Positions 1-26,141 of a stretch of DNA of 64,000 nt are shown here, one piece after another (the stretch's first letter is position 1; every line of letters begins with the position of its first letter). Origin of the DNA: Tubulanus polymorphus (taxonomy: Eukaryota; Animalia; Nemertea); assembly GCF_964204645.1 (NCBI RefSeq), contig NC_134028.1, forward strand, positions 13,459,553 through 13,523,552, read 5' to 3'. The position numbers and the translations under genes are program-made. The notes under the pieces are model-generated. The model saw only the letters and a list, made by a program, of their open reading frames with translations. It ran no database searches and was not told where the DNA came from.

Positions 1-214
1 TATTATCATGACCAATAACTTTTATATCAGCTGATAAATAAATACTATTTGGAACATAAAAAGTATTTTGTGTTAATCTAGGAATTCTAACATATAAAGT
101 TTCATCGGGATTAATATTTGAAGGATTATGAGTAATTATATGATGTGATCTTTCTGCTTTAATAGCATTAGATATTCTAGAAATCTTAGAAGGACTTATA
201 TAACTCCCACTCAT
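1..214 (-). CDS. Major capsid protein, 5' part (runs off window)
   Basis: MSGSYISPSK...ERSHHIITHNPSNINPDETLYVRIPR, near-identical to the 20059 and 50056 starts; start context TAAATG. Confidence 0.85.
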   Translation of the reverse strand, partial: MSGSYISPSKISRISNAIKAERSHHIITHNPSNINPDETLYVRIPRLTQNTFYVPNSIYLSADIKVIGHDN

Positions 215-234
215 TTATTTAACAAAAAAATTAA

Positions 235-1664
235 TTATTTATTTTTAATCATATTCACTAACCCAAAAATAATAGCACTTACAACTGTAATTAAAAATAA
301 AATAATATGTTCAGCAGCAAAGTTAAGAATATTCCCAGCAGATTTCAATATAAAACCAACAATTGATGCAATAACTCCGGGTAAAGCTGCAGCAGATTTT
401 TTAGATAGTTCCCATAAATATTTTGCTAATTTCTTTAAACCATCTTTAACTTTATCTTGTATAGAATTATCATTCGGGGGTTTATCCGGTTTATTGGGAG
501 TAGGAGTAGATTTTAAAGCATTTGATAATGCTAAACCAATTGTTGTAAATAACATAGTTACAGCTGTTAGAATTGAAAGAATTGTTATTCCTTCTAATTT
601 AAATAATAACTTTATTCTATCTTTCAATGATATTTCAGAATTTGGTTTTATCAACAAATCTTTAAAAATAACTTTTAATCTATTTATATTATAATCGTAT
701 GATTTTAACAATAATTTAATTTCTTCTTTTTGTAATTCTATGTTATATTCTAAATCATCAATTTCCTTTTCTAAATATGCATTTCTTTTTTTAAATTCAA
801 TTTCTTCAATAACTTTATTATCTCTATCTAATTTTAATTGTTCTATTTCTTTATTTTTATCAGTTAATTCTTTTTCTAAAGTTCTAATTTTTAAATCTCT
901 TATACTTTTATCATGCGCAATTTTATCAGCTTCATTTCTTATACTAATCATTTCTCTTATTGCTTTATCAGAAAATATATTATTTAAATCTTCTAATTCT
1001 TGATCTGTTGCATCAATTAATCCATTCGGTAAAAGTTTTTCAGTTTGAACTTCACTTGAATTAGGTTTACTAGTTTTGGAATTATCAGCTTCTTTAGTAA
1101 TTGTTTCTGGTTCTAAATTTTCATTAATTATCTTAAAAAAATAATCATTTCTTTTTTTAAATTCTCTTATATTAACATCTCTTTCTTCTTGTGTAACATC
1201 AGTTATAACATCATTAATGATTTTCTTAATTCTATCTGGTTTTAATAAATTAAAAGTTGATTGTGTTATTATTTTATCGAGACTTTTATTAGAAGAAATC
1301 TTAAAATAATAATCATCTTTCAAATGCCAATAATAATCACCATTTGAATATTTTAAATCTTCTACTAAATAATCCATACCTTTATTTGTTATATTGAAAC
1401 CAGATTTTCTTAATATTGGTTTAAAATCACTAGCAATTTCATTATATTTAAATTTTTTTCTATTAATTCTGTTACTTCATTTTCAATACTTATCTTTGAA
1501 CGTGTTTTATCAATAAATTCAGGTGTAGTTAAATTAGAATTACTTCCTGGCTCATTACCGTCATTAAAACTTGTTTCACTAAAATCAGGTTGTTGTTCAT
1601 CAGTTATGCCAGGTTCATCAAAATTATCCATTCCAATATCTTCTCCACCTCCTTCTACATCCAT
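235..1664 (-). pseudogene. Acidic N-terminus, coiled-coil and C-terminal transmembrane protein (frameshifted: ORFs 1410-1664 and 235-1377)
   Basis: Heptad-rich E/K region followed by hydrophobic segments ITILSILTAVTMLFTTIGLAL and IILFLITVVSAIIFGLV; homologous to 20079-21511. Confidence 0.75.
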
Positions 1665-1680
1665 TTATATATTAAAGAAA

Positions 1681-3055
1681 TTAAAATTTAAAATATAATG
1701 TTCCTCCTATAACAATTCCTATACAAGTTAAAGCTAATTAAGTATTTTCATGGAATTTATTATCATTATCAGTTTTAATTATATCATGTTGAATATTATC
1801 AGTTTTAATATTTTCTGTAGTATTTTAATCTTTTATTTTAGAATCATTATTTAATTTAATATTCTTAGTTTTAGTTTCTGTTGATTGAATATGTTTTTTA
1901 TTTTTTTCACCTTCCATTAATTTTGGAGCAGTGATAATCTTTTTATTTATATCATTTAATCCAAATGAATTATTTATTGTTGCAGTTTTAATTAGATTAT
2001 TGTAACCAATTATGTTTCCCATCTTTAGTACTAAATCATTAGAAATAATTAATAGATTAGGTCCTATACAATAATTTAATCTAATATGTGCTTTTGATAT
2101 CTTACAATGTTTTCTGGAATCGATCTATTTTTATCATTATGAATGGAATCTTCAAATTAAACTTTGAATTGTTTCTGCGCATCGAATGAAGTGTTATCAT
2201 TTCCAATTATTGGGGATCTTGTTTCAACTTGCGCACCTAAAATACATATCAAATAAGTTCTAATAGATTGATTTATTCTTTGTATACCTGATTTTGTAAA
2301 ACCTTCATTATTTTCTAAAATGAAATAAACCCAACCATTATTGTTTTCTTGTTTTAAATTATCATAAAATGTCGGTAATTTATTGAAATTTAATGTTTCA
2401 AAATCCTTAGTTTCTATTTTACCATAACCTAATTTATTACTATAGATATTATACAAACTATTAGATGGTATGGGAAGTGCACAATATTCTGCAATCTTTT
2501 TAGGGCAAGGAAGTGATCTTATTGTTCCCTTTTTGTTCTAAAATCAGAATTATTTATATCTATATTAAATTCATTACAAATGTTATAAAACTTTGATAAA
2601 TTAATTTTATTATCTAATTCTTTAAAATACCTAGATCCTGGTAAAGCGCACTCTAATTCATTTAATATTATTCTGATTTGAAAGTATGTATGAAATCTAA
2701 ATAAACTTTGAATTAATTTATATTTAGAATTATTCAAATGATCATTCCAACTAATTCCACATCCTGTTGTTGCACAATAAACAGCAAAATTTAATTGGTT
2801 CTGCCAATACTTCATATTAGATTTTAATAACCATTGTTTTTCATCTTTCAATTTTTTAAAATTAATTAAATATACATGAAATATATTTTCCATCTTTGCA
2901 TTAAAATTATTAGTTTCAGTAACATAAATTTCTAAATTAGTTAATGAATCTAAAACTTCATTTCTATATGTAATATCTTTATTAAAATATATTGCTGGAA
3001 TATTATATTTAATTGATTTATTATATTGGAAAGCTTTTGGAAAACCATCTACCAT
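1681..3055 (-). pseudogene. Conserved viral protein of unknown function with C-terminal TM anchor (fragmented)
   Basis: ORFs 2519-3055, 2157-2456 and 1825-2022 are collinear with 21533-22828; motif WQNQLNFAVYCATTGCGISW...FRFH. Confidence 0.75.
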
Positions 3056-3083
3056 TTATTTAATTAAAAAATTAATAATTTAT

Positions 3084-3506
3084 TTATTCTTTTAATAATT
3101 TATCTTGTTCTTCAACTGTGATATGACCATTTAAACTTATTATATAATCTAATGTATTCTTTAATTTATTAATTTCTTTAATATTAGTTTTAATTTTTTC
3201 TTGATTACTTTTTATATTTAATTTTGAACTTATACCAGTTAAAACACTTGAACTTAATCCTAATACACCAATTGATATAGCTAAAGGTGTTAATGGACTG
3301 AATATTGCTAGAAATGTTATTACAGAACTAATTGTAACCGAACCACTGATAATAAGATAATATATAATTTTACTTTTTAAATATTTTTTCTTTTTCATCT
3401 TTAAGTCACTTTCAAATTCTAATATTTGTTTTTCTAAATATATTTTTAATTTAGTTTTATTTATATCATGAGGAATAATATCAATACTATCAACTTTATC
3501 TTCCAT
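3084..3506 (-). CDS. Small two-TM membrane protein
   Basis: Two hydrophobic helices flanked by basic coiled-coil; near-identical to 22845-23279. Confidence 0.75.
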   Translation of the reverse strand: MEDKVDSIDIIPHDINKTKLKIYLEKQILEFESDLKMKKKKYLKSKIIYYLIISGSVTISSVITFLAIFSPLTPLAISIGVLGLSSSVLTGISSKLNIKSNQEKIKTNIKEINKLKNTLDYIISLNGHITVEEQDKLLKE

Positions 3507-3526
3507 TTATTTAGAAAAAAAAATTA

Positions 3527-3989
3527 CTAGTTAGTAAATTTATATGCTACAAATATAACAATAACAGTTCCACCTAAAATCCAAATTATTTCATATTTCT
3601 GTTGTTCTTTACTTGGGGTATAATAATCTGATAATTTAGGTTTGTATAGATGTAATTTTTCTTTCTTGGTTACCGCGTTATATAAACTCATTGCATCATC
3701 AACTGATTGAAAATCTCTATGTGAAATCTTCTGATCATATAATTCCTTGTTAATATAATCCATATAGTTTTGTCGTTTTTCTCTGTATTCTTCTGCTGTT
3801 TATTATATTTCTCTTATGCATAGTTTTATCCGATATATTATAACAAGAATTACATAAACTTATATTTACTAATTTTAAATCAACACAATTCTTAAATTCT
3901 CTATCTAATTGAACTAGTAAATTATGTGATTTATAATTTGTAAGTTTTCTAGAATCAACAAATATTCTGTATTCTTTTAGTTCTACCAT
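3527..3989 (-). pseudogene. Deletion fusion of penton 5' end and the 3' part of the 140-aa membrane gene
   Basis: The 5' part matches the 25095 start (MxELKEYRIFVDSRK) and the 3' part matches 23300-23600; about 1.3 kb present in copy B is missing at about 3822. Confidence 0.8.
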
Positions 3990-4057
3990 TATTTATAACA
4001 TAAAAAAATTACCGCTCATCACTAAAAATTAATTTTAATAAAATTTGTCCTTAATAA

Positions 4058-5374
4058 ATGGATGAGAAGATACCATGCGAAATTTGTGGTGAACTTCTAA
4101 GAAAAAGTAATATGGCTCGACATATGAAAAAACATGATGAAAATTATAAACCCCCTAAACTAAACTGTCCAAAATGTAATAAATTATTCTCAAGAAATTA
4201 TGTTAAAAAACATTCAGAGAAGTGTAAAATTAATGGTGCAACGGCTAATGTTGATAGTAATGAAAGTAATAGTAATTCTGCTGAAGTTGTACCTGAAATT
4301 ATTTGGAAAAGACCTTTCTTATTCTATGATAAGGATAATATAAAAGATCATTTCTGCGAGCCTTGTCGAGTAAAATATAGCCCTGAAATATAGAAGATTG
4401 GGAGAATCATCAATTTCGTAAAGTACATATAGATAAAATTTCTTATAAATTTGAAACTGAATTCAATGAAAGAAAAATAGTTTATTAGAAAAAATTAAAT
4501 ATGAGAAAACGTTAACAGTTGAAAAGTTAGAAAAACAATATAATGAATTAACAAGAAAAACATATTATTGTAAATATTGTAAATTGATTATTACAACAAG
4601 TAATTCAAATCTACATAATAGAACAATAAAGCATAAAGAAAACGTAAGAAAATACCAAGAGCTTAATGAAGATCTATTACCAATAAATTATAAACGAAAA
4701 TGCCCACAATGTAATTACGCGACCTTAAGACAAGAAGGTACTGTGTTATTTTGTGTTGATTGTGGATGGCAAAGGAATTTATGGGGTGAAGAAAAAACTA
4801 GAAATTTTCTCATAGAACCAAAATTAAATTATCTAGATGAAATTTTTAAAATATTTTCTATAGAAGATCATACACCGGAATATATGCAATGGCTTGAAAA
4901 AATGAAAATAATAGAAAATAAAAATGGTGAAATAACTAAAAAAGATATTATAAAAACAATTATTCCGTCAACATTTAACACAAAACAAAAGAAAATGTAT
5001 TTATATTTATTATTTAACGATTATTATGATAAAACCTAAATTAACAGAAGAAGATATGGAAAATATAAAAAAAAATATTCAAACAAATATTAATGTATCA
5101 TTTGGAAAATAGAATAACAGATTCAATTAATTATGAATTCTTTTTAAATAAGATTGTAAATTATTTAAACATAGATATTATAATTCCATTTGACGAATTA
5201 ACAAACAAAAAGAAACAAAGAGAGCGAGATGAAATGTGGAACATGATAGAACTTTATTTAAATGAGAAAAATGAAATGGAAGAAGAACCTAAACAAATTA
5301 TACAAGAACAATTATATGAAAATGAAGAAGCCAATAGTGATTTCGAGTATGATGATATTGATTTTATGTTTTAA
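4058..5374 (+). pseudogene. C2H2 zinc-finger region plus poxvirus late transcription factor VLTF-3 (A2L)-like domain, fragmented
   Basis: CEICG..HMKKH finger; Zn ribbon CPQC-x13-CVDCG; KLNYLDEIF; ENRITDSINYEFFLNKIV...DEMWNMI resembles vaccinia A2L ENTPSKTINYSFFLDKIF...LVWENF (recalled from memory). Confidence 0.65.
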
Positions 5375-8300
5375 TGGCCATAAGGTAATGTTTTTATACC
5401 ATCATCTAAAATATGCCTTTTATCATCAAATGGATTCAAACTAGTTTTTTCAACTTCATTAATGTACATCTCGTGATCTTCTGATCTTAAACAATTCATT
5501 TTGTGTTTCATTACAATTGATTTATATAAACACTTTATATAATCTTGAAATTCTATATGTTTATCAACCACATGTTTTGTTATTCCTTTTAACTTTTTAG
5601 CTTCATGATCTTTTGTTCTGTAACTATACATTTTACTTCTTATCCCAACAAATTCAATCATTTCATCACCCCCTAATTCATCTTTAAACTTACCAGGAAT
5701 CTGTTTATTATCATTGCTAAATAGTTCATGATCTTTGGGATAATTGTTAAAATCAAAATGATGTTTTGATGTTTTTAAGTCTTTTGTTATGTCATTTGTC
5801 TTGATTTTTAGTATGTAGGCGTCAGTATTTTTGGCTATTAATGGAAATCCACAGTTAAATGTACCATCTTCAGTTGATAAATCATAAACATAATCTGTTG
5901 GGTTATATATTTCAAATAAATCTTTAACTTCATCTGTTACCTCATTTTCTACATGGCTTAAATTAAAGCAATTTGGTTTAGATTTAATCAATCCAATATT
6001 CATATCAAAACCTAATGAATTGCATAATATATTCAATCCTGATATAGCAACTTTTCCTTTTTGAGCTAAAGATATTGTTTTGCGATTTTTGAAACTTTTA
6101 GTACCATCTGCTGCGTAGAATCCAATGAAGAACCATTTTCTTAAATTATTTTTTACATTTAATACATAATCTGGAACTATCTTTTCTTTAGTTGAAGTAT
6201 TACTTTTCACTATTGCATGAATATAGAATTCGTCATTATATTTTATAGCAAAATCTTTAGGATTATTCACATGTATTCTATAACATTGCGATGATTTCAT
6301 AACATCTATGATTTTGAATGTTTTATGTGAATAAACTTCTTCACAGAATTTCTTTATTCTTTCTAATAATTTCAAATCTTGATTGCATAAATACCAGCAA
6401 TATTGAGTGCGATTAACATAATTATACAAACCTGCTGAACCATCACCCATGAAAAATCCTTTGATAAAATATTCTTTTTCTTCTAATGTTTCGGGTTCTA
6501 TATTATAAATATTATCAATAATTTCATCAAATGACATATGATTCATTCTTTGGAAAAATCTTTTATGTAATAATTCATCTCCAATTTTTATATCAGTTGG
6601 TTTTATTTCATCACCATTTCGTTTAATCAAACTATGATCTTCTGTAACGTCTACAAACCTTAATTTAGTTCTAACTCTATAGATTTTCTTATTTGTTTTA
6701 TGCTTAATAATATTCTTTAATTTTTTCCATCCATTTCTTGTCCAAACATCCATTAATCCATTTATTTGTATTAATTCTTTTTCACCATATGAAATATAAC
6801 ATTAATTTTGTTTTGGAATTATTTCTGAAATTCTTCTTATCAATATTTTATCATTACATTTTAATAATATTGGGGTGTCAGCTGTTACAGAATCAAAATA
6901 TAATATTTCAATATGATTTTCCCCAAAAAGTGGTTGTAAAACCTTAATAATTTTAATACTTCTAAAACAGTTGAACCAATGAATATAGGTTTATTAAATT
7001 TCATTGACGTTCTTTTTAATTTAACTGCTGTTAAATAATCTTCAAATCTTTTATTTCCTAAATGTCTAGGACTTGATTGTAAATGTCTTAATCGTTCAGA
7101 ATTATTTACTAATTCAATATTATTTCTATTTCTAATATTTTCACATGTTTTACCATAAAAACTATTATTCATTAATTTGAAGAAATCTTTTTCAAAATCT
7201 GTTTTTGATATTGTTCTCTGTTGAGTATTGAAATCTATATATTTTTCTAACCACTTCGATTGATTAAATTCAATATATCTATGTACTTTCTTTAATTTCA
7301 TTCCTTGTTTTAGATAAAATTTTAACATTTTATAATGAACAATATAATTGTATTTATTATTTTGAGTAAGTATTAATTTTTCTGTAAAAACATGATCTTT
7401 CGGTTTTATTTTCTTCTGGTATTCACTTAAATAACTATCATCTACAGTTAAATGTTCTGGGCAATAAGGTAAGTTTCTTGTTTTAAACTTTATATTTTCA
7501 GGATATTCTAAATCAACTACAAAGAAATAACCAATTGGTGCTTCATCTTTTAAACTCGCAATTGCGCTTTCCCAATTAGTTTTATCATCATTTTCAACGT
7601 CTGTTAATATAAAATTTTTATATGGTTGAGGTTGCATCATTGCCCAACCATATAAATTATTGGCGTCAATATATAATAATTTATATTCATCATTTGCTTT
7701 AAAATACCTATCTCCCATAACACCACTAATTCCTCCTCTAATTGATTTTTCAAATAATAAAACCATATCTGGTTCTTTTAATAAATCTAATTCTACATTT
7801 GTATATTTTAAACCACATTGCCAGGTTAAACCAGGACTAGAGTAGCAATAACAAGGATCAACATGAAAATGATTCAAATTAACTTCTCTAAATTTTTCAA
7901 ATATGTCAGCCAATATCATAACATCTGATTTTAAATACAAATCAACTAATTCACCATGATTTTTCATCTTAAAATGGTTCCAAATATTTAATGTTCTATT
8001 AAACACTTCGTCTTTCACATACTCCTCTTTCAATTGATCATAAAATGGATCTTTTAATAATTCTGTTACATTAAAATCATTGTGTGTTTTATAAAATGAA
8101 TAAGGAATTGCGCCTTTATATCTCAATAATTTAAAATCTTGTTCATTTGGATAATAATATCGAGTTATAACAAAATCATTATCAACTAAACTTTTTGATA
8201 AATTATCTAATGAACTTGCTAGAAATCTATAAGAATTTAAAAATCTAATGCAACCAAATTGAAATGAAATATAATTTTCAGATGTTTTAGCTAATAGTTT

Positions 8301-9446
8301 AAAATCATATTTTCTTACATTTACACCATTAATAGCATTATATTCTTCTAATTCTTGATTAATTGCGCCCAATTTCTTTGATAATTGTTTTATAAATAGA
8401 TGGGTATCATAGCCTGATAAATTATGAAATAATATTGGTACGAAATTAACTTTCTTAGCTTGTAAATTACAATCTTCATGAGCAGCTCAACGATATTTTG
8501 AATTTAAATGATCATGATCTCTAACTTTTTTATCAAATGAATAAAAACGTTTTTCACAATAACAACAATGAGTTGCATAATTAAAATCAATTTCATCTTC
8601 TTTTGTCATAACTATTCTTTTATTTTTGTTTAATAATTTTGCAAAATCACTTTCTAATTCAATCATTTTGTTACAAAAATCATTAACTACATCTTCACCT
8701 CTAAAAGAAATATATTGACTTTCATATAATTCAGGATAATTTGATTTTATATAAATTCCATAAGCAGCAGCTCTTTGATGAACTTTTTTAATTGTATTTA
8801 TAATTGGCGGGTCTTGTGTTGTGTCTTCATTTAATTCATTTCCTTTATCCATTGATTTTAATAATTGCTTTTTGTTATATATTTCTTTTCTATCTTGATC
8901 AGTTAATTCTTTATTCAACGATTCAAAATCCCCATAAATTACAAATGGAACAATATTCTTAAATTTATTTTTAGTAAATTTCAATTTATAATCTTTTTCT
9001 GTTGGCATTATTAATTTACAAAAATCTTTATTATCACATAATTCTTTATGTTTTAATAATGTATTCTTAGTCATAAATTTAGATAAACATTTTCTACATA
9101 GATAAATTTTATGATGATGATCACTTTCTGTTCTAAAGAATAAATCAATTTTTTATCATCAAAATAATCTTTTCCTAAAACATTATTACTCAAATTTTGA
9201 TGGTGTTTTTGTGATTCGAGATGTCTATTATAATTCCTTTTTACTATAAATTCATTACAAACTTCACATTTTATTTCATCCACATTCATATTTTCTAATC
9301 TTTCTTTTCTTTCATTGGAATTTTCTGGAGTTTCAAAATCTATTACATTTTTTATATGATTTGCAGTTTTTTCATGTCGTGTTTTATGAGATGTATTGAT
9401 TTATTTTTTTTATAATATGTGCAATAATATTGATTTTTATAAACAT
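5371..9446 (-). pseudogene. polB: Protein-primed family B DNA polymerase (pPolB), frameshifted, intein-containing
   Basis: YGDFES (ExoI), DHDHL, YLKSDV, YIDANNLYGWAM (motif A), KLMNNSFYGK (motif B), YFD|TD (motif C), KMY, KGI, FDDKR; N-terminal zinc fingers. Confidence 0.92.
5827..6891 (-). mobile_element. Intein with LAGLIDADG homing endonuclease in pPolB motif C (355 codons, one internal TAA at 6802-6804)
   Basis: YFD|SVTADTPILL (block A); VDVTEDHSL (block B TxxH); FIKGFFMGDGS and FFIGFYAADGT (two LAGLIDADG motifs); YVYDLSTEDGTF (block F); LIAKN|TDAY (terminal Asn, +1 Thr). Copy C reads YFDTDSY without an insert. Confidence 0.93.
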
Positions 9447-9614: not shown

Positions 9615-12464
9615 TTACTGCACATAGTCATTGTAACGCGATGGTGGTCTCACCACTCTACCCGATCGAGTGGTAGTTAGTTCAGTTTGTGCATCATCCG
9701 AAGCCGTAGTCATTGACTCTGGAACTGACAAGTCATCGATGGTTGCCGGAAAGTGTTCCTCCTGTGTTCTGCTCAACTGACGCCTATTTCTGCGATAATA
9801 TTGTCCTGATTCAGCGACAACATTGTACGAACGCGGTTGTGGTGGAGAGCTAACCACGCGAGCTGGTTTCCATCGCTTATTATCACGAATTCGAACGCCA
9901 ATCGTTAGAGGTTGCGCTCGCTCCACGATCGTAGTATCTCTTTTGCCGCCAGCGTTTCTCCTCTATGTTACGACGCGTTGTAGTTGGATCGCTGACTCTC
10001 GGACACAACATGTTTTCAGTTGCAGGTATGATTGAGTTTAATCTGCGATTCATCAATACCTGACTCGGTCACGATCGATTGGAGTATTTCGGTACCCCAG
10101 AAGCGCTAGGTACGGATCGTTTCCGCTTTCCTTACACTTTGTGAGTATGGTTGAATCCCCATTCTCATGAGAATCGCTTAAACTCCTGTGAGCTGTACTG
10201 TGGACCGTTGTCACTTACAACCTCCTTAGGAATTCCATGTCTCGCGAAGAGAGATTTCATATGTGTAATCACGGTAAGCGATGTTTTATTTGACAGTTTC
10301 GCTATTTCTGGATAACGTGAGAAATAATCCACCACGCGAACGTAATCGCCACCGTCCCATTCAAACAAATCCGACGCGACCACTTCCCATGGTCTTGCCG
10401 GAACGACGTGTGACATCATCGGCTCTTTTACATTCGCGTTTTGATGTTCTAGACATATTTACTGAGACACCATATCTTTGACCTGGGCCGTCATGCCTGG
10501 CCAAAATAACAGATCGCACGCACGCTTGATGCTCTTTTTCTACGCCAAAATGACCAACGTGTATTCGCTAAAGCATTTCTTTGCGTAACGCTTTGGGAGC
10601 TAGGATTCGATTTCCTTTCAGAATCAGTCCGTCTACTACAGTTAACTCGTTTCGCACACTGTAGTACGTGTTCAATTCCAACGGTAATTTCTCTCGCTTT
10701 GTCGCCCAACCGGTTGCTATCTCATGTGTTAATTGACACATGGACTGGTCTCTACCCAATTCCGACTTAAGCTCCTGTAGCTTTTCATGTGACATACGTT
10801 CGTTCGCTACGACCATGTTGACATATTCTTCGACTTCATTGTCCATGTTTCCCGATGTGTCTGGCAGTGGTGCCCGGGATAACATGTCCGCTATTAATAG
10901 TAGCTTTCCGGGTTTATATCGCACTACAAACGAGTATCGCTGAATACGTAATAACATTCTCTGTAGACGCGGGGGTGCTGCTGCTAGAGGCTGTTTTAGT
11001 ATTGCCTCTAGAGGCTTATGACCCGTTTCGATGTCAACCGTTTGACCGCAAGTGTATTGGTTGAATCGTTCCAACCCAAACACGATGGCTAACAGTTCTT
11101 TCTCAATCTGCTTATAGTTCATCTCCGCTTTTGTCAACGAACAAGATGCGTATGCAACAGGACGATTTTCCTGTAGCAGAACTGAGCCCGGACGAAACTG
11201 AGAAGCATCACCACTCACAGTGACCGGTTTCGTCACATCGAAGTACGTCAAGACTGGTCCCGGCTCACGCGTTAACACATCCTTCAGTACTTTGAATGCT
11301 TCGATCTGAGGTTTTTGCCACGCAAATTCCACATCATCGTGTAGTAACTCTCAAATCGGTGCTGTAATTTTCGACATATTTGGCACGAACTTAGCCAAAT
11401 AGTTAACAGTGCCCAACAGACGTTGCACTCCCTGCTTATCGGTGGGTGCCGGCATCTCGCTGATTGCCGTGATTTTCGCTTGCTGCGGTCTTACACCGTT
11501 AGCGGTAAACGTGTGACCAATGTAATCGATCTCTGGAACCGAGAACTCACACTTCGGTAGATTAAGTGTCAGTCCTATTTCTTTACGACGTTGCAATACC
11601 GCATGTAACCGCTGGTCGTGTTGCTGTTGATTTACGCCCCACACGATCATGTCGTCTATGTCCGTTTCGACACCCTCGATATCGTCGAAAAGTTTTGCTA
11701 TACGCTTTTGGAACAATTCCTGCGCCGATTTGATCCCGAATGGCATGCGACGAAACGCATATCGCCCGAACGCGCAATTAAAAGTGGTTAGTAGCTGCGA
11801 ACCTTCATCTAACGGTATCTGCCAGTATCCCGAGTTCGCGTCGAGTTTTGAGAATACTTTAGCTCCTGACATCCGCGATGCAATTTCCTCGACCGTGGTT
11901 AACTGGTAATGATCCCGTTTTATTGCGTTGTTGAGGTCTCTGCTGTCTAAACATGCGTAAATCTCCCGATTTTTTAGCTACTATAACAATATTGCTCACC
12001 CAATCTGTGGGTTCCTCGACTTAACGGATTACTCCGTCGCTTTCCATTTTGCCTAATGTCACTTTTAATTTATCTCGTAACGCAATCGGTTCTTTTCTGG
12101 GTGGCCTGATCACCGGTTCGATCGACTCATCCACTGTGATCTTGTATGGCTCTTCCAAACAACCCAAGCCCGTGAATACCAACTTGTTTTCTTCAACTAT
12201 GTTGTTTGTACTAATGTTCATTACGACGTTTATCAGCTCCAAATCCCGCGACGCACAAAATTCGAGGACTGGAGTCTGATCTGTTTCTACCACATAAAAC
12301 TTTAAGAACTTTCCTCCGCATCTAATCACGCACGTACCCGTTACCGGTATGTTATTGCCGCTAGTCAACTTGGTTTTTGCCGCTGTCAGTTTGGGAGCCC
12401 GTTTATTGCACTGTAGTTGTCTAAAGTTCTTAGCTGGAAGTATGTTTACCTGAGACCCTGTGTC
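9615..12464 (-). pseudogene. pol: Gypsy pol: protease C-half, reverse transcriptase, RNase H, integrase
   Basis: DTGSQVNILP; LDANSGYWQ, MPFG, DIDDMIV (RT); DASQ, YKQIEKELLAI (RNase H); ASDLF, VDYFS, SDNGPQY (integrase); several stops and frameshifts. Confidence 0.92.
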
Positions 12465-12470
12465 AATATA

Positions 12471-12817
12471 AGTAATAGGGGTAATGGGCTTTCAGGCCAA
12501 AGGTCGAACGGTCGAGCTCATTAAAAAACAAAACATTAAAAGTAATTTAAAACTATAATATATTTTCATAACCGTGTGTATTTCATAACCGTTGGTCGCT
12601 CCACTTCGCTGCCGCTCCGCTCCGCGACCAATTGATTTATTTGCAATACACAAATTCATATAATCAAATATATTCAAATAATAATACTTATTCTATTATT
12701 CAACTGAAATACACACGGTTATGAAAATATATTATAGTTTTAAATTACTTTTAATATTTGTTTTTAATGAACTCGACCATTCAACCTTTAACCTGAAAGC
12801 CCATTACCCCTATTACT
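12471..12817. repeat. Left TIR of copy B, itself a fold-back palindrome
   Basis: 12471-~12585 is repeated in inverted form at ~12705-12817; central GC hairpin TTGGTCGC...GCGACCAA. Confidence 0.85.
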
Positions 12818-12907
12818 CTTAAAATATTCATGTAAATGAATAACATTTAAATTCACAGATTATTCAATATAAAAGTGTAAGCTCTTATAGAATAGATATA
12901 TAGATAG

Positions 12908-13519
12908 TTATTTTATAAATTTATATTCATATGGAAATTGTAGTCTCAGTAATAATTTTGAACCTTTATTATTCTTTAATTTATTCATATATTCATCATG
13001 TAATTCAGTTGGTATAATTTGATTTTCTTCCAATGATTGTTGCATAGATTTTTTATCTTTGTTATAAAATAAAACTAGGAATCTTATATTCTCCCTAAAG
13101 TCTTTAACAATTGAATTATATTTTTGATTTAAAACCCATGTTGTTATCCCAAAATGTCTCCCAGAGAAAGCTTAATAACATAACTCACTTTCTCTCACTT
13201 TTGAATCATGTAAATTTGCGCAATCATCTATAATGAATAATGTATTTGATCCTTAATAAGTATCAATTGCTATTTTAATACAATTATCTAAATTTTCTTT
13301 TACTGTTTTAGGATTTAATATAATAAACTTTTTTATCTTAACTATATCTCTATTATATGTTTTATTCATTTCATAAGTAGGACAGAATAATATTATATTA
13401 TCAAAATGATTCTTATAAATAGTTTCTAACAAATCTAATATGAAATGTGTTTTACCACAATTGGTTACACCAGTAACTAACATATTATGCGGTTCGAATA
13501 TGAATAAATCTTTATTCAT
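12908..13519 (-). pseudogene. A32/FtsK-like DNA packaging ATPase
   Basis: Walker A GVTNCGKT, Walker B FIIDD, SGRHFGIT; internal stops. Confidence 0.88.
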
Positions 13520-14624
13520 TTATTCTTTTAATTTTACTAGATAAAATCCATTCATTGAATTTATCATCATATCCTTTATATTTCACCAAATAATACTTTT
13601 TTCCTTTAAGAGTTTTTGTTTTCAATACTTTTTCTATTTAATATTCTATTTCTTCTGGATTTGGCACAAGTGATAATTCTTGTTCATAGAAATAACCTAA
13701 TATTTCTTCATCTTTTAGATCTTCTAATTTATAAACAAAAGGTTTAGTTAATATTATCTTTTTAATCTTGAATATTTCTTCAGTAAAATTTGGGGTATAA
13801 CCTTTATAAAATGTTTTTCGATATTTAGATATTCTTACGTGTTGTCCTATTTTAAATTTAGGTTCTCCGAAATCATGCGTAACAAACGCACCATATAAAT
13901 TATTCCAAACTATTTCCGAATTATCTTCTTTTCTAGCTTGTATAGGTTTCATATTTATAGAACTATGTTTAGAATTATTATAACCTTTCACTAAATCATC
14001 TAATACATCGATATATTTATATGTTTCATTAGCAGTAAAATATTTCCACATTCTAGTTTTCAATGTTTTATTAAATCTTTCTATAATAGATGCTTTTTTA
14101 TCTGAGTGTGTTGAAAAATAATCTACATCGTTATCAGATAATAGTTTTTTAAAATGTTTGTTATAGAATTCCTTACCTTCATCAAATTGTATCTTATCTG
14201 GAATAGCTTCTTTAAATATATTCTTAAAAGCATTTGTTACTTCTATGCCAGTTTTATTTTTGATTGGAATTGACCATGCGTATCTACTGAATATGTCTAT
14301 AACATTTAATATCCAGAAATATCCTTTGTTGTATTCTTCTAAGTTCTTCATGTCAATTAAATCTGCTTGCCATTGTTGATCAATATATGAAACCATAACT
14401 TTTCTTGTTAAATAAGTTTTATCCATTTTCTTGTGGATTTGATATGTTGGTTGATTTTGTAACCATGATTTTAATTCACTATATTTTATATCACCATGTG
14501 GGTGCCGTATGGCACCATTTTCATTATCAGATTTAATTTTACCCCATAATTCTGTAACGTTAGAATATGATACTTCACTTTCTGGGTTATAATATAAATC
14601 TCTTAAATATTGTTCTTTTTCCAT
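13512..14624 (-). pseudogene. int: rve retroviral-type integrase with C-terminal chromodomain (premature stop at 13638)
   Basis: WQADLIDM, IDIFSRY, QFDEGKEF, IERFNKTLK; after the stop, IEKVLKTK...YLVKYKGYDDKFNEWI (chromodomain). Confidence 0.92.
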
Positions 14625-14630
14625 CTTATT

Positions 14631-14999
14631 CTAATCCATTAATAATAATTTAGATTTAGTTTCAATAGCTTTATGATTTGACTTATTTTCTGGTATAATA
14701 GGTTTATTATCATTGGAATCATCTTTATCATCAGATTTGAATTTTGATTTATATATTACACCGGATAATATAATAATTGTGATTAACCCAATTGTAATAT
14801 ATAAGTAATTATTTCTTCCACTATTAGAAGAATCAGATGGATTATTACTTGAATCAATATCAGATAAAGTCTGTGATTCATTTATATCAGTTGATTTCTT
14901 TTTCTTAGCTTTTTTTAACTCTGAAGATCTTTTACCTAATTCTCTTGCCCATTTAATTTGTTTTTCAGATCTAGCCTTTTTCTTAACGCTATCACTCAT
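14631..14999 (-). CDS. Basic N-terminal, single-TM viral protein
   Basis: ORF with YLYITIGLITIIILSGVIY hydrophobic segment; TAAATG start. Confidence 0.6.
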   Translation of the reverse strand: MSDSVKKKARSEKQIKWARELGKRSSELKKAKKKKSTDINESQTLSDIDSSNNPSDSSNSGRNNYLYITIGLITIIILSGVIYKSKFKSDDKDDSNDNKPIIPENKSNHKAIETKSKLLLMD

Positions 15000-15008
15000 T
15001 TATTTTAG

Positions 15009-15598
15009 TTAATTTTTGTTCTGATTCATTTTCTGTTTCGACGTTTGGTTGTAGTACAGCGTCATCTGTTTCGTTCTTACCTGATTTATATTCCATAGGT
15101 TTGATGTTCGAAAATGTTATGACGCCAGTAGAAATTAATGTCATAACCGATCCTAATTGAAATGAAGCATAGCCGACCCACTTTGTAATTCAGTCATAAC
15201 TAAATAGTCATTTTCAAATCACTATATAATTTATTTTCATCATTAATTGTCATTAACCGGTTACATAATTTTGAATAACATTTTATAATACTATCTGAAA
15301 TAGAATCATTTATTCGAGCCAATCTAGCTCCTTCATAAATCTTAAAATATTTTATTACTTTATCTGGTTTCATAGCATCTAATTCTTGAAAAGTAATTAT
15401 TTTCCCGATAAACTGATTACATTTCCCACCAGCAATTAATAATTCTAGATGGTGTTTACAATATAAATAGTATTCATAATCAATATCACAATTAATATTA
15501 TTTTCAATTTTGATTGGAATATCCTTATTATCACTAATGCATAAATCATCTAATGTTTTTTCAATGTTGGTATTATTCTTATTAGATTTCTTTGACAT
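15009..15598 (-). pseudogene. Hypothetical viral protein (frameshifted near 15200)
   Basis: ORF 15200-15598 with TAAATG start; coding-like sequence continues to about 15009. Confidence 0.5.
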
Positions 15599-16739
15599 TT
15601 ATATTAGAGAAAAAAGCAAGAAAAATATTATAAATATTCTTCAAATGATACTAGCTAGTTAAAGCTAAAGAATTTCTATTTGAATCTATTCAAAATATAA
15701 AGTATTCTCTTTTGAAAAGAAAGTTTTAAAAATATAATAGAATTCACTAGCTAGTTGAAGTTAGTTTTTTAAATACTTTTTATTTAAATTAGGATTTAGA
15801 TTATCTCACTACTATTGTTTATCTATTAGGAGCAGTAATTATAACTGTCCAGATAAGTCATTTCGGATTCTCGATAAATAAATCCTAAAACTGAAAATAA
15901 ATTCAAAGAAACGACTGGTGGAAATACTATTTCATAAACACACATATATTTTATTCTACAATCATTATCGATTTCCACATTCCAAGCCGCTCAACTCAGG
16001 CCCGGTAAGTTATGCGTGGAATGCAGGAATCAATAAAATACAATACAACATCTGTCACTGTGTGTCATTAACAACAGCTTAATGACGCAATTGAAATTCC
16101 GACAAACGTAATGCATTGAAAGCCTATACAGTATGGCTAAACTGCTACAGTCTCATGAGTTGAAATATCCATTATTTCTGATTCCACGTCCATATATCTT
16201 CACTTTCTTGATTCAATGGTCTTCATTTTGTTATCTAAAAGATAAATATCTAGCGTAGAATAAAACTAACTTGAAGTTGTAGTTGTAAAATATTAATTAC
16301 AGCACTTAAACATAGCCATTCGTGGCGCATCTTTGTCCGATAAGTTTTACATGTTTAGCGTTTCCCAACGCCTTAATAACAACAAAAACAGTACTTACAT
16401 TTATAACTGTAAAATTGTGTTTATAGAGAGAATATCCTATACGTTCCTATGCTTATGTGCTGCGCGCTTATAACTGCCAGTTATTCACTAGCTAAACACT
16501 GTCTGATACAACATATGTTCCTTCCTTTGTAATATAATTGATTAATCCTTTTCAACTGCAATAGAACATTCGATCGATATTCAAATGAGATACACCCTAT
16601 TCAACTGAATATAACGTGCGACAGATGCTTTTGTAAACAACCTAATACAATTACATACAGGCGGTTTGACATAGATCGAGAGTAACCGGTTTTCTAAGCG
16701 GTTAACATTCAACGTATTTTTCATTATGTGTTGAATTCC

Positions 16740-17325
16740 ATCATTCAACAAATGTCTTTGCTTTATCCAGTTGATCTAAATATAATTTCATATCTAGTTT
16801 ATTAGATTTAAAGGTCTTAAATTTTTCCAGCTCCATATTAGCTTCTTATTATAATCATCATTCATGTTAAATTTAGAAATCGGCAACACATGATCAATAT
16901 GAAAGTATTCACCATAATTATCTATATTCATTTTATCATCGAATTGATATATTATCCATGATATGAAAAATTCATCTGAACAGATTAGATAGTGTTTCTG
17001 AATGTGTTTCTTTGTTGAATAATTGTGTTAATCTAGATCTTAAGCATTGTTTCAATCTAAAATTAAGATCTGTTTGATATCTTTCTCTCATATATTCTGC
17101 CATATAATAATTATAATGTTCTATATTATCTTCTCGATATCGTTTGGTATATAGTTTAAAAGAAGTTTTACAGCAATATTGAAAACCATCTTTGCTAATC
17201 TTACGCTTACTAAATTCTGTTAAAGCTAATTTATCTAATTCAAATTTAGAACACTTCTTGTAGTATATATTTATGACACCAGTGTTATTTGTAATATTGA
17301 TAGTTTGTGGTTGTTCTGGTTCCAT
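16740..17325 (-). pseudogene. HNH-type endonuclease resembling those of NCLDVs
   Basis: CSK..LTEFSKRK..KDG..CK; YQTDLNFRLKQCLRSRL; after a frameshift, MNIDNYGEYFHIDHVLPISKF...WKNLRPL. Confidence 0.7.
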
Positions 17326-17495
17326 TTATTATACATTTATTATTTTTTTACTAAATTGATTTTAGAAGTTATTCATTTATATGTTATTCATGAATATATA
17401 TGAATTATTTCAATAAAACTTTACTAACACTTTTAATGTTTAAAAATCTAACTCATACAAATATAAATATTGAAATATGTTTAAAATATACCTAT

Positions 17496-17810
17496 GTATT
17501 AGATACCCTATTAGATACCATATTAGATACCCTAATACCTGATACCCTATTAGATACCTTAATTACTTAAAATCCCCTTTTTAAAAATAAATATTATTTA
17601 TACAATTTTCAACCAATTTATTTTTATTTTTTAACTAATATATGAATTAGTTTGAAAATAATAAAGGTTATTTATTATTACTGAGGTTTCAATATAATTT
17701 AAGTTATTTTCAAATAATATGTATTAAATACGTATTAGATATGTATTAAATACGTATTAGATATGTATTAGATACGTATTAGATATGTATTTGATACCTT
17801 AATACTTAAA
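17496..17810. repeat. Two clusters of 11-bp GTATTAGATAC-like palindromic tandem repeats
   Basis: gtattaaatac/gtattagatat/gtattagatac units at 17721-17797 and variants at 17496-17560; conserved in copy D at 47695-47965. Confidence 0.75.
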
Positions 17811-17870
17811 ACCCCCTTTTTTATTTACTATTATTTTATACAATTTTCAACCTTTATTACTTTTTGAGTG

Positions 17871-18779
17871 TTAGATAATCACTTTCTGAATCACTTTCAT
17901 CATCACTCTCCTCCAATTCATCATCACACACTTATTCTTCACCCTTTTTACCGTATCTTCATAAATAATTGGTTTATTGATATACTTATTAGTCATCTCA
18001 ACTATATCTTTATTTTCTGATTTAAGTTTCATAGAATCTTTATTATCAATGCGCTTTCCTGTAACTATATCACCATGTGGGTGCCATACAGCACCATTTT
18101 CATTATTATCTTTATTAGTGTTTGCTCCTAATATTTCATTTACAGTGTTTGATTCTAATATTTTATTAGCATCGGTTAAATCTAATTCATCTTTATTAGG
18201 TGTTGCTAATAATAAATCTTTATATAATTCTTTACCATTTACTTTTTGATTTGAAACAAACTTTGTAACATATCTAAATGGGTGTTCTATAAATTCTTTT
18301 AAACCAACACGTTTTATAACATTAGTAATATGTGAATTTGTATTCATATGATTATTCCAATTTGATGGAGCGTTTGAAAATTCGCCTTTACAATAATCAC
18401 AATAATTTCTATTTTCACTAACATTTAATATTATTTCATTATTAGATGTAGAAGGTATTACATTATTAGATGTAGAAGGTATTACATTATTAGATGTAGA
18501 AGGTATTACATTATTAGATGTAGAAGGTATTACATTATTAGATGTAGAAGGTATTACATTATTAGATGTAGAAGGTATTACATTATTATCAATTACATTA
18601 CTTAAATTATCAACAACACCACTTTTATTATTATCGATTTCTATTAGTTTAGTTTTATAAATTTTGAAAATAGGATCAAATATCAAAGCTATATTACAAG
18701 GTATTACATAATATAAACCATCATTATTTTCATGTGTATCGATGTATGGAATATGTTTATATACTTTACCTCCTTCCAT
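17871..18779 (-). CDS. Hypothetical protein with 24-nt tandem repeat (NNVIPSTS x6) and a zinc finger
   Basis: Repeat at about 18437-18587; CDYC...HMNTNSH; homologue at 48035-48758. Confidence 0.7.
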   Translation of the reverse strand: MEGGKVYKHIPYIDTHENNDGLYYVIPCNIALIFDPIFKIYKTKLIEIDNNKSGVVDNLSNVIDNNVIPSTSNNVIPSTSNNVIPSTSNNVIPSTSNNVIPSTSNNVIPSTSNNEIILNVSENRNYCDYCKGEFSNAPSNWNNHMNTNSHITNVIKRVGLKEFIEHPFRYVTKFVSNQKVNGKELYKDLLLATPNKDELDLTDANKILESNTVNEILGANTNKDNNENGAVWHPHGDIVTGKRIDNKDSMKLKSENKDIVEMTNKYINKPIIYEDTVKRVKNKCVMMNWRRVMMKVIQKVII

Positions 18780-18811
18780 TTATTATATAAATTTTTATTA
18801 AAGTTAAAATT

Positions 18812-20059
18812 TTAATACATAACACTATTCAATTGAGAATTTACAATATTTAATTGCGCGTCAGATATAATATAAATATGCATTTTGAAATTTAGGCTTC
18901 CTTTTTTCTTTGTCATGAATAATTGTATTCCATCTTTAGTGTTCTGTAGTTTTTTTCCAGAACCATGTAATGAATTATCCTCTGTTGTTCTAAAATCTAA
19001 CCATAATGCATATTTATTGCCGGTATAATAATCAATTTGATTAATATTACAATTTTCAAATGATTTTACTTTTTCATTCATAAAATGTTTTCTAATTTCT
19101 GGCCACTGATCTATCAATCTCATTCCTTGACAAAATATTTTATTTGCTATTCCTTCGATAGTTATTTCTACTTTTGTTATTTCAGGATTATAATAATTAT
19201 CAACCTTTATTGCGCCATTAGAATATGTTGCAATGGTAAAAAATATTAATGTACCTTTAATAGATCTTCTTGGGAAGTTAATATTCTCATTAATAATTTC
19301 ATCATTTGCATTAATAGTTACAGTTTTAAATTTATCAATATAATCATATAATAATGAAAATCCTTGATTGTATTGAGTTTGAATTATACTTGAAATATTT
19401 TCATCAGTTACTGTGTCATATTCTAAACATATATTCGATAATTTATAACTCATATCTTTATCAACGCTAGATATTACAATTTCATTTACAGGAGCAAATG
19501 TTATTTCGAATATAACGTCTTCTTAAATTACGTATTTATATAAAGGTGCATTGTTATTTATCAATTCAAAGTCTAATGGAATTTTATATTTGATTCCATA
19601 TATACTTTTTATCAATTTATCTACAGCATTAGTTAATATTGCGCTATTAGCTTCTGATCTTAATTTATTTTGGTTTTCTGATTGGATTCCTTGAAATATC
19701 ATATTATTTCTATTTTCTTTAGTTAACCATAAATTTTTATAATGCATAAATAAATTATAATCATCTAATGAGAAAACAGTTTCTGGACCAATCTTTATAG
19801 TTAATTTTTTAATCAAATATCTCCCAACATTATCAACAACATAATTATTATTATTACCGGTTACTTTTATATCGACTGATAAATAAATACTATTTGGAAC
19901 ATAAAAAGTATTTTGTGTAAATCGAGGAATTCTAACATATAAAGTTTCATCGGGATTAATATTAGAAGGGTTATGAGTAATTATATGATGTGATCTTTCT
20001 GCTTTAATAGCATTAGATATTCTATGATTTTTCGAAGGATTGATATAACTCCCACTCAT
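18812..20059 (-). pseudogene. Double-jelly-roll major capsid protein (one in-frame stop at 19523)
   Basis: About 415 codons. Beta-rich motifs NPSNINPDETLYVRIP, KIPLDFEL, YKLSNICLEYD, INFPRRSIKG, ALWLDFRT, IISDAQLNI, typical of Polinton-like MCPs; position inside the element. Confidence 0.8.
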
Positions 20060-20078
20060 TTATTTAACAAAAAAATTA

Positions 20079-21511
20079 ATTATTTATTTTTTATCATGTT
20101 TACTAATCCAAAAATAATAGCACTTACAACTGTAATTAAAAATAAAATAATATGTTCAGCAGCAAAGTTAATAATGTTTCCTGCAGATTTCAATATAAAC
20201 CAACAATTGATGCAATAATTCCTGGTAATGCTGCAGCAGATTTTTTAGATAGTTCCCATAAATATTTTGCTAATTTCTTTAAACCATCCTTAACTTTATC
20301 TTGTATAGAATTATTATCTGGGGGTTTATCTGGTTTATTTCGAGTAGGAGTAGATTTTAAAGCATTTGATATTGCTAAACCAATTGTTGTAAATAGCATA
20401 GTTACAGCTGTTAGAATTGAAAGAATTGTTATTCCTTCTAATTTAAATAATAACTTTATTCTATCTTTTAATGATTTTTTAGAATCTGGTTTAATCAACA
20501 AATCTTTAAAAACAACTTTTAATCTATTAATATTATAATCATATGATTTTAATAATAATTTAATTTCTTCTTTTTGTAATTCTATGTTATATTCTAAATC
20601 ATCTTTTTCTTTTTCTAAATACGCATTTCTTTTTTTAAATTCGATTTCTTCAATAACTTTATTATCTCTATCTAATTTTAAAGTTCTAATTTTTAAATCT
20701 CTTATACTTTTATCATGCGCAATTTTATCAGCTTCATTTCTTATACTAATAATTTCTCTAATTGCTTTATCGGAAAGTATATTATTTAAATCTTCTAATT
20801 GTTGATCTGTTGCATCAAGTAATCCATTTGGTAAAAGTTTTTCAATTGGAACTTTATTTGATTTCAGTTTACTAGCTTTGGAAGTTATATTCTGTTCAGA
20901 GTTTCTTTCTGGTTCTAAATTATTATCGATTGTTTCAAATAATTTATTAATTCTTTGTTTAAATACTCTTTCATTTTTAATAATTTCTTCTTGTGTTACA
21001 TCTTCTGGTTCATTACTATTTCTTATTCTTTTAATTCTAGATAGGTCTAACTTAAGCAAAGTTGATTCTGCTAATATTTTTTCTTGTTTTTTATAAGAGA
21101 TATCAATATAATAATCATCTTTCGAACGATAATAATATTCACCATCTAAAAACTTTAATTCTTGTACTAAAAGTCTAGCGCCTCTGTCATTTATATTATA
21201 TCCAGATTTTTCAAATATAGGTTTGAAAATTATAAATTTTTAGGTTTTAAATTATAAATATATTCATTATATTCTAAATTTTGTTTTACTAAATCTGGAT
21301 TTTCATTTTCAGGAGGTATTCTCGACCTAGTTCTTCTATCAAATTCATCTGTTGATGGGGCTTTAGAACCACTATCTGCTAAATTAGAATTATATGCTGA
21401 TTCATTACCATCATCAATATTAGTTTCTGCATCATTATAATCATCATCAATATATCCTTCATTATTATTTCCCATGCCTTCCATTTCATAATCTTCTCCA
21501 CCTTCTGCCAT
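20079..21511 (-). pseudogene. Coiled-coil and TM protein, copy B
   Basis: ORFs 21230-21511 and 20190-21059; C-terminal half near-identical to 235-1040. Confidence 0.75.
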
Positions 21512-21532
21512 TTACTTAATAAAAAATTAAAA

Positions 21533-22828
21533 TTAAAAATATAATATTCCTCCGATTACAATTCCTATACAAGTTAAAGCTAATTTAGTATTTTCATGGG
21601 ATTTATTATCATCATTTAGTTTAATTATATCATGTTGAATATTATCAGTTTTAATATTTTCTGATGTATTGTAATCTTTTATTTTAGAATCATTATTTAA
21701 TTTAATATTATTAGTTTTAGTTTCAGTTGATTGAATGTGTTTTTTATTTTTTTCACCTTCCATTAATTTTGGAGCAGTGATAATCTTTTTATTTATATCA
21801 TTCAATCCAAATGAATTATTTATTGTTGCAGTTTTAATTAGATTATTATAACCAATTATATTTCCCATCTTTAATACTAAATCATTAGAAATAATAAATA
21901 GATTAGGGCCTATACAATAATTTAATGTAATATGTGATTTATCTAAATAATTTTGATATCTTACAATGTTTTCTGGAATCGATCTATTTTTATCATTATG
22001 AATTAAATCTTCAAATAATACTTTAAATTGTTTCTGCGCATCGAATGAAGTGTTATCATTTCCAATTATTGGTGATCTTGTTTCAACTTGCGCACCTAGA
22101 ATACATATCAAATAACTTCTAATAGATTGATTTATTCTTTGTATACCTGATTTTGTAAAACCTTCACCATTTTCTAAAATGAAATTAACCCAACCATTAT
22201 TATTATCAATTTTATAATTATGATAAGCTCCAATTCTATGAATATAATCAATTCTTTTTATTTCATACTCTTCACCAACACCTTGCAATTTACCATGCGC
22301 TCTAAAATCGGAATTAATATTTATATTAAATTCATTACATATTTTATAAAACTTAGATAGATTAATATTATTATCCAATTCTTTAAAATATTTAGACCCG
22401 GGTGAAGGACATTCTAATTAATTTAATATTATTCTGATTTGAAAATATGTGTGAAATCTAAATATTGTGTGAATTAATTTTAAATCAGAATACTTCAAAT
22501 TTTTATCTAAGTTATTTAAATGATCATTCCAACTAATTCCACATCCTGTTGTTGCACAATAAACAGCAAAATTTCATTGATTCTGCCAATATTTCATATT
22601 AGATTTTACTTTATATATATGGTATTCATCTCGAGTAAAAGTAACTTCATATGTATTAAATATATTTTCCATTTTAGAAATAAAAAACTGTGATTCAGTA
22701 ACATAAATTTCTAAATTAGTTAATGAATTTAAAACTACATTTCTATATGTAATATTTTTCTTAAAATCTATTGTAGGAATATTATATTTAATTGATTTAT
22801 TATATTGGAAAGCTTTTGGAAACCCCAT
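21533..22828 (-). pseudogene. Conserved viral protein with C-terminal TM, copy B
   Basis: ORFs 22574-22828 and 21533-22378; homologous to 1681-3055. Confidence 0.75.
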
Positions 22829-22844
22829 TTATATAATTAAAAAA

Positions 22845-23279
22845 TTAATAATTAACTAATTCTTTTAATAATTTATCTTGTTCTTCAACTGTTATATGAC
22901 CATTTAAACTTATTATATAATCTAGTGTATTCTTCAATTTATTAATTTCTTTTATATTAGTTTTAATTTTTTCTTTATTACTTTTTATATTTAATTTTGA
23001 ACTTATACCAGTTAAAACACTTGAACTTAATCCTAATACACCAATTGATATAGCTAAAGGTGTTAATGGACTGAATATTGCTAGAAATGTTATTACAGAA
23101 CTAATTGTAACCGAACCACTTATAATCAAATAATATATAATTTTAGATTTTAAATATTTTTTCTTTTTAACTTTTAAGTCACTTTCAAATTCTAATATTT
23201 GTTTTTCTAAATATGTTTTTAATTTAGTTTTATTTATATCATGAGGAATAATATCAATATTATCAACTTTATCTTCCAT
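22845..23279 (-). CDS. Two-TM membrane protein
   Basis: Intact 144-aa ORF, TAAATG start, homologue of 3084-3506. Confidence 0.75.
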   Translation of the reverse strand: MEDKVDNIDIIPHDINKTKLKTYLEKQILEFESDLKVKKKKYLKSKIIYYLIISGSVTISSVITFLAIFSPLTPLAISIGVLGLSSSVLTGISSKLNIKSNKEKIKTNIKEINKLKNTLDYIISLNGHITVEEQDKLLKELVNY

Positions 23280-23299
23280 TTATTTAGCAAAAAAAATTA

Positions 23300-23722: not shown

Positions 23723-23746
23723 TTATTTAGCAAAATAATTACGCAT

Positions 23747-23968
23747 TTATATGGGAGGAATATATTTTTGTTTTTCCAAATAATCAATAGTTAAATTAGA
23801 TAAAGTAACTGCTAACGTTAATTTTAAAATATCATTGATATCAAATCTATCAACATTAACACTTCCCATTTTAAATACTTTTTTTAATACCATTGAATAA
23901 CCAACAGTTCCAACTGATAGTAATGCGCCATTATATAATCCAGTTATTATCCACTTATTATCACTCAT
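23747..23968 (-). CDS. Small hydrophobic protein (73 aa)
   Basis: Intact ORF, two moderately hydrophobic stretches, T7-6nt-TAAATG start. Confidence 0.65.
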   Translation of the reverse strand: MSDNKWIITGLYNGALLSVGTVGYSMVLKKVFKMGSVNVDRFDINDILKLTLAVTLSNLTIDYLEKQKYIPPI

Positions 23969-26135: not shown

Positions 26136-26141
26136 AATATT

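Follow-up and report, generated by a model that had tools for sequence, protein, structure and literature searches.

The gene for a protein-primed PolB (pPolB) in a 64-kb stretch of DNA (hereafter, the window) is interrupted by a genuine intein, more than a chance resemblance, that is inserted precisely and in frame, with an empty allele of the site nearby. This is probably a homing, pol-c-type LAGLIDADG intein that derives from giant viruses and resides in the pPolB of a Polinton in an animal host, the copy in the window (copy A) being dead.

The intein of copy A and the polymerase it interrupts

Translated on the minus strand, positions 5827-6891 read from SVTADT to IAKN, with ILYFD before and TDAY after, and contain a single in-frame stop, at codon 30. 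The features of the intein and of the two pPolB copies are as follows.

5827..6891, minus strand: intein, Hint splicing domain and two-motif LAGLIDADG endonuclease, 1065 nt, 355 codons
6874..6891, minus strand: block A, with the Ser1 nucleophile
6802..6804, minus strand: in-frame stop, codon 30
6631..6648, minus strand: block B, TxxH (TEDH), Thr83 and His86
6436..6468, minus strand: LAGLIDADG motif 1, Asp150
6172..6189, minus strand: endonuclease motif with the conserved Lys237
6100..6132, minus strand: LAGLIDADG motif 2, Asp262
5872..5889, minus strand: block F, Asp337
5827..5838, minus strand: block G, ending in Lys-Asn and followed by the +1 Thr
6892..9400, minus strand: N-extein, pPolB copy A (PF03175), with a frameshift at about 6943, a stop at about 8485 and a large deletion at about 9151
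5371..5826, minus strand: C-extein, final 151 residues of pPolB copy A, 78% to residues 1162-1312 of the pPolB P0222
27827..31210, plus strand: pPolB copy B, degraded; the insertion site is empty and falls between 31186 and 31187; DNA 73% identical to copy A

All the elements that the original prediction had read from the letters were found again, namely, the coordinates, the 355 codons, Ser1, TEDH, the two LAGLIDADG motifs, the Lys-Asn end, the +1 Thr and the single TAA at 6802-6804, which is codon 30. We take the motif at 6172..6189 to be the one named block D. In the Hint and LAGLIDADG profile searches that had been proposed as a check, TIGR01445 (intein_Nterm; 32.7 bits, cut-off 24.5) and Pfam LAGLIDADG_3 (29.5 bits, cut-off 22.5) match the window intein above their cut-offs, and Pfam Intein_splicing matches it below (29.6 bits, E 7e-7, cut-off 35.8); this last cut-off is passed by the stop-free relatives P0033, P0047 and P0450.

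An AlphaFold2 model of the window intein, built from a 96-sequence alignment with X placed at the stop, has a pLDDT of 91.6 and a pTM of 0.92; a model from a shallower alignment of 6 sequences (pLDDT 38.9) was not usable. The top PDB matches in Foldseek are solved endonuclease-bearing inteins, PI-PkoII (E 3e-17), the VMA inteins TliVMA and PhoVMA (2e-16 to VMA inteins), PI-PfuI and PI-SceI, and the top viral structural matches are the PolBs of a phycodnavirus, a pandoravirus, a marseillevirus and a megavirus. In the predicted fold, the two Hint halves are separated by a full endonuclease.

The ORF upstream of the intein matches PF03175 (protein-primed PolB; E 1e-18), and the flanks match P0222, an intact, intein-free pPolB, at 68% (upstream) and 78% (downstream). 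Alignment to P0222 puts the insert between the Asp and the Thr of YFD/TDS (the slash marks the insertion point), which is polymerase motif C. The original prediction had equated this site with pol-c, and this is borne out, the position being the same as that of the mimivirus intein at YGD/TDS. Copy B reads LYFD/TDSY without an insert, differs from copy A at 4 of 30 flanking bases, and encodes a polymerase with a PF02945 endonuclease domain. In copy A, a frameshift lies about 17-20 codons upstream of the intein, so that the ILYFD quoted above is out of frame with the main polymerase ORF, an extra stop closes the 8487-9152 frame, and there is a large internal deletion near 9151. Because of the stop, the frameshift and the deletion, copy A is a dead relic.

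In intact copies, self-excision is predicted to restore motif C. Splicing would follow the class 1 chemistry (PMC7765530, PMC5874633), with an acyl shift at Ser1, attack by the +1 Thr, and cyclisation of the terminal Asn that would proceed without the usual His. Since the polymerase would need splicing to regain motif C, the intein would be protected from imprecise loss.

Related inteins in Polintons and giant viruses

The window intein is no one-off and belongs to an old, diversified family present in several Polinton lineages. Among 29 matches of nearly the same length, 22 are the same intein, at 43-75% identity and with pPolB-type flanks wherever flanks are included, and intein clusters of 41, 55 and 22 members are on long contigs. 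At least six full-length, stop-free pPolBs carry the intein at motif C among the 120 listed of 154 long matches (P0450, P0451, P0452, P0453, P0454 and P0459); the cluster of P0450 has 136 members, and the P0451 intein is 61% identical to that of the window. All 13 full-length Polinton inteins have Ser1, the Thr and the His of block B, the Asp of each LAGLIDADG motif, the endonuclease Lys, the block F Asp, the terminal Asn and the +1 Thr; at the penultimate position, 10 have His, 2 have Lys and 1 has Ser.

This family bears on a reading that we consider very improbable, under which the insert either is a relic that no longer splices or has been domesticated as a Hint protein, Hedgehog-like or BIL-like, and intein-bearing Polintons need intein-free helpers. 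The window copy taken by itself would fit such a remnant, being broken, devoid of the penultimate His and under the Intein_splicing cut-off. However, the six or more open precursors, one representing a cluster of 136, the splice residues conserved at 40-60% overall identity and the full endonuclease between the Hint halves all argue against it.

Two members of the family stand apart. P0459 is a full-length pPolB with the intein at a YLD/TDS site; the intein is 47% identical to that of the window and sister to its subclade (support 92), and BLAST of the polymerase against the window's class found nothing significant (best E 0.2). The presence of the intein in a non-aligning polymerase class points to lateral homing. 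One stretch of P0459 resembles the VSR-type nuclease described for some pPolBs and may correspond to it. The P0454 intein ends like the viral inteins and groups with them (80-91), a possible second, independent gain.

Outside Polintons, pattern scans of metagenome and viral contigs yielded 160 loci (the best 80 of 130 and the best 80 of 386), and a further scan added 6; a single-sequence scan of viral contigs gave 22 pattern matches and no relative. The outside rows were picked by likeness to the query, with near-duplicates (above 65% identity) and some partial rows excluded. Of the 166 loci among the matches listed, 132 ORFs could be parsed at both junctions: 120 have the intein at YGD/TDS, 7 have DQD/TDG or DAD/TDG flanks, and none has Polinton-type flanks. 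Many of the top viral contigs listed are labelled GVMAG, and the window intein is 35-40% identical to the best giant-virus contigs among them. Among the matches listed, 224 giant-virus-type inteins were parsed, of which 123 are below 65% identity. Within the same scope, the nearest outside relatives are, by similarity, the inteins of giant-virus RNA-primed PolBs at YGD/TDS.

These relatives also account for the penultimate residue of the window intein, a Lys in place of the usual class 1 His, which the original prediction had singled out as odd. The Lys is there, and class 1 inteins without the penultimate His are known exceptions (PMC5874633). Among the matches listed, 68 of the 224 outside inteins end in Lys-Asn, and these score best against the window intein. 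We therefore rejected decay as the origin of Lys354, and its oddity does not hold.

Several other loci were noted in these scans. The DQD/TDG and DAD/TDG flanks (L045, L048, L049, L053, L055, L062 and L071, which carry the same intein group) are read as those of viral topoisomerase II, and P0455 combines topoisomerase domains with two inteins of this group, which suggests that the group can colonise non-allelic DxD-like sites. Giant-virus-like PolB inteins also occur on contigs labelled Promethearchaeota and uncultured archaeon (L167, L168); L169-L171, with bacterial labels, may be mis-binned viral DNA. P0025-P0030 are giant-virus-type PolB fragments with a short intein at YGD/TDS that is devoid of most of the endonuclease.

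Separate trees of intein and extein, as the original prediction had advised, were made. The Polinton inteins, apart from that of P0454, group together (support 96-100) among the Lys-Asn inteins in four intein trees, of which three had archaeal pol-c inteins as the root. In one of these, with an archaeal outgroup, the clade comprises 11 Polinton inteins (SH-aLRT 100) and is nested within the giant-virus-type inteins, with enclosing branches of 92, 95 and 96; a quick version of a mixture-model tree agrees. The AU test rejects neither the joining of all giant-virus-type inteins into a single clade (p 0.363 and 0.322) nor that of all 12 Polinton inteins (p 0.406). Hence transfer from giant virus to Polinton is the best reading and, with non-significant AU tests, is not proven. 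The intein likely came from giant viruses, and its source would be the Lys-Asn-ending giant-virus PolB inteins, acquired long ago in a shared host cell. The earlier proposal of an origin from an NCLDV-type PolB agrees with the nearest relatives and with nesting in the best trees; the direction of transfer (AU p 0.32-0.41) and co-infection as the route are the parts that did not become firm.

For the window's polymerase class, the intein tree has largely the same topology as the polymerase tree, and the identities are similar (46-50% vs 48-50%); P0459 conflicts. The agreement within the class means that an old gain followed by repeated precise loss fits equally well. Intein presence is scattered over the polymerase tree, which covers 26 rows (the intein present in 9 and absent from 17): it requires 7 changes, compared with a mean of 7.6 for shuffled states, and at least 5 of the changes are forced by well-supported branches. 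Close relatives that are empty exist for the lineages of the window, of P0450/P0033, of P0451 and of P0452/P0453. A higher identity of inteins than of exteins was discarded as proof of homing, being true for 90% of 141 giant-virus-type pairs. Between the empty Polinton site and 128 viral sites, a median of 7 of 18 bases differ (4 in the best case); therefore, the first jump would need a relaxed nuclease or recombination. Once in Polintons, the intein likely spreads by cleavage of alleles that lack it, and repair of the break would then copy it in. The many Polinton copies of one nucleus would offer targets without mating or co-infection, and homing among them would be accompanied by precise losses.

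We regard as unlikely a different history, in which a real intein entered an ancestral pPolB once, from another source or with flow in the reverse direction, and was then inherited and often lost with little homing. This single entry is compatible with the non-significant AU tests and with the agreement of trees and identities within the window's class. It is at odds with the same intein clade in the non-aligning polymerase of P0459, with the nuclease residues kept in all 13 inteins, and with the far greater number and diversity of giant-virus-type inteins among the matches listed; the grouping of the P0454 intein with the viral ones also counts against it, although a single clade has a p of 0.41. 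Derivation from giant viruses followed by homing remains our preferred reading. Its extended form, a still-mobile family in animal chromosomes that originated from giant viruses, possibly twice, homes, and has crossed two diverged pPolB classes, seems to us about evenly balanced between right and wrong.

Copies, surroundings and host

Organism A is represented by reads from two studies under one species label; 4 of 10 listed runs contain the stretch, all from one study, and run X5 consists of raw genomic reads of the second study, of which about 12% were sampled. In X5, depth at 88% likeness is 130-252 over the intein and about 250-416 over the flanking polymerase; in low-copy bins, at 97% likeness, it is 4-17. 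These depths correspond to about 10-60 intein copies, a range that combines different likeness thresholds and low-copy bins that may not be single-copy. At the position of the stop codon, 185 of 215 X5 reads have no stop, so the lesion at codon 30 belongs to few copies, and 2 X5 reads join both flanks, as expected of an empty allele close to copy A. The stop-free alleles that the original prediction had suggested looking for thus exist as reads at codon 30 and as the six or more open public pPolBs; no listed read or contig of organism A spans a whole intein-bearing polymerase copy.

The interrupted element (element A) is, by its predicted genes, of the Polinton/Maverick type, and a second Polinton lies next to it. 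The other elements in the window are as follows.

1..5039: more genes of element A, running off the left window edge
12463..26143: neighbouring Polinton, lying within a Gypsy-type retrotransposon; its terminal inverted repeats are 98% identical over 125 bp
12910-13583: A32-like ATPase region of the neighbouring Polinton
13638-14630: rve integrase of the neighbouring Polinton
18812-20059: capsid gene of the neighbouring Polinton
51701..54157: YqaJ ORF facing a DDE_Tnp_4/HTH_Tnp_4 transposase, in the ISL2EU layout, degraded, low copy in organism A

Positions 1-2367 and 2537-3825 match the neighbouring Polinton at 83-89%, including the start of the capsid gene, which is all that element A's own part in the window has of the integrase, capsid and ATPase set. 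Inverted repeats are seen on the neighbouring Polinton (12463-26143). Related Polinton fragments with an A32-type ATPase are at 47000-50300, and no scanned ORF of the window has a Pfam match to an adenain-type protease. The neighbouring Polinton has a near 6-bp target duplication, its pPolB is reduced to the C-terminal 90 codons or so, and a small ORF in it (16972-17325, minus strand) matches endonuclease VII families (PHROGs E 4e-5).

The window also has an endonuclease-RT LINE. A 31-bp satellite (34121-34416 and 35638-40808; about 166 plus 10 copies) adjoins a 155-bp tandem repeat. High-copy non-coding repeats are at 58761-64000, 44585-46780 and 54769-58559; one of these has 300-bp inverted ends (98%), and another is about 2 kb long, in several copies. 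Rfam and tRNA searches of the 64-kb window gave no match, and no host gene was found in it; a candidate Tcf25 host exon at 32605-32886 (E 6e-4) was rejected, being below the cut-off and within repeat-like DNA.

With no host gene in the window, we infer an animal host, which we hold to be very probable, from the ISL2EU-type transposon and the other repeats. The repeat content (LINE, Gypsy, satellite) is in keeping with an invertebrate. The intein and the ISL2EU-type element are both present in both studies, and one contig matches 50974-54144 with zero differences. The alternative, that the element resides in a eukaryote outside the animals or in a symbiont that was co-sequenced and that the intein extends the cases known from protists, has in its favour a window devoid of host genes, tRNAs and Rfam matches, and the precedent of algal nuclear scaffolds with inteins in viral-type polymerases (PMC10710043). 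However, the occurrence of intein and ISL2EU-type element in two studies of one species label speaks against it, as does the element itself: a survey of 836 genomes reports 25 ISL2EU families in 14 species, all animals (PMC4482050). We judge a non-animal host improbable.

Comparison with known systems

The pol-c intein family in Polinton pPolBs would be a previously undescribed variant of a known element, no earlier report having been found. In the open full-text literature searched (PMC12220804, PMC5718144, PMC8502044, PMC3671162 and PMC11296320 among it), no account of a pPolB with a Hint-LAGLIDADG intein turned up; the word "intein" is absent from the text of PMC13215967 and PMC11131425 and has 0 occurrences for the preprint 10.64898/2026.10.13.758929. 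The novelty proposed by the original prediction, which an existing catalogue of pPolB inteins in animal Polintons would remove, therefore stands within this literature. Its comparison with metazoan nuclear genes has to be narrowed: the interrupted gene is not a host gene, being viral-type and part of a Polinton. The surveys in PMC5784728 and PMC7765530 give fungi, protists, plastids and large DNA viruses as the sources of eukaryotic inteins; neither animal genomes nor protein-primed polymerases are among them.

The family extends full-size inteins to a protein class new to them, and probably to the germline DNA of an animal. Its relationships are evidence, at the level of sequence, that genes have passed between Polintons and giant viruses, which is relevant to the question of whether animal Polintons encounter such viruses or rely on them. 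If the family is indeed still mobile, it documents in molecular form that Polintons and giant viruses have shared cells. One genome has tens of alleles, full and empty, so that the homing cycle could be tested within a single species, and the endonuclease would be a naturally selected nuclease with a predicted target in an essential motif of a transposon family.

The closest known systems are the pol-c inteins of mimivirus, other Nucleocytoviricota and archaeal PolBs, which occupy the same xxD/TD site in motif C (PMC549080, PMC5784728), the mimivirus and archaeal ones being described at the YGD/TDS position in PMC549080. They share with the Polinton intein Ser1, TxxH, LAGLIDADG, the terminal Asn, the +1 Thr and a length of about 350 aa. 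In contrast, the carrier of the Polinton intein is the protein-primed PolB of a small integrating element with tens of chromosomal copies, and the flanks are YFD/TDA, HYMD/TDS, ASD/TDS and YLD/TDS instead of YGD/TDS.

The HNH, VSR and GIY-YIG insertions of Polinton pPolBs and PLV helicases also bring endonuclease domains into Polinton polymerases (PMC10748475), and PMC11161782 raises the possibility that endonuclease insertions in Polinton pPolBs stem from intein invasions. Unlike the window intein, those insertions, as described, have no Hint domain and no splice junctions and lie outside the catalytic motif; the main text of PMC10748475, which describes the HNH and VSR domains, contains neither "intein" nor "LAGLIDADG". 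The inteins of algal and labyrinthulomycete viral-type polymerases and the nuclear inteins of Anaeramoeba (PMC10710043) are likewise virus-derived and chromosomal. Those cases concern viral-like polymerases on algal and protist scaffolds, in a main text without "polinton", "animal" or "metazoa". Inteins do occur in animal viruses, namely, in Iridoviridae such as Chilo iridescent virus (14 in PMC5784728), but these are large, non-integrating viruses, and the Chilo intein is of the glutamine-ending type. Finally, Hedgehog and BIL Hint domains have no endonuclease and interrupt no conserved protein, whereas the window intein has the one and interrupts the other.
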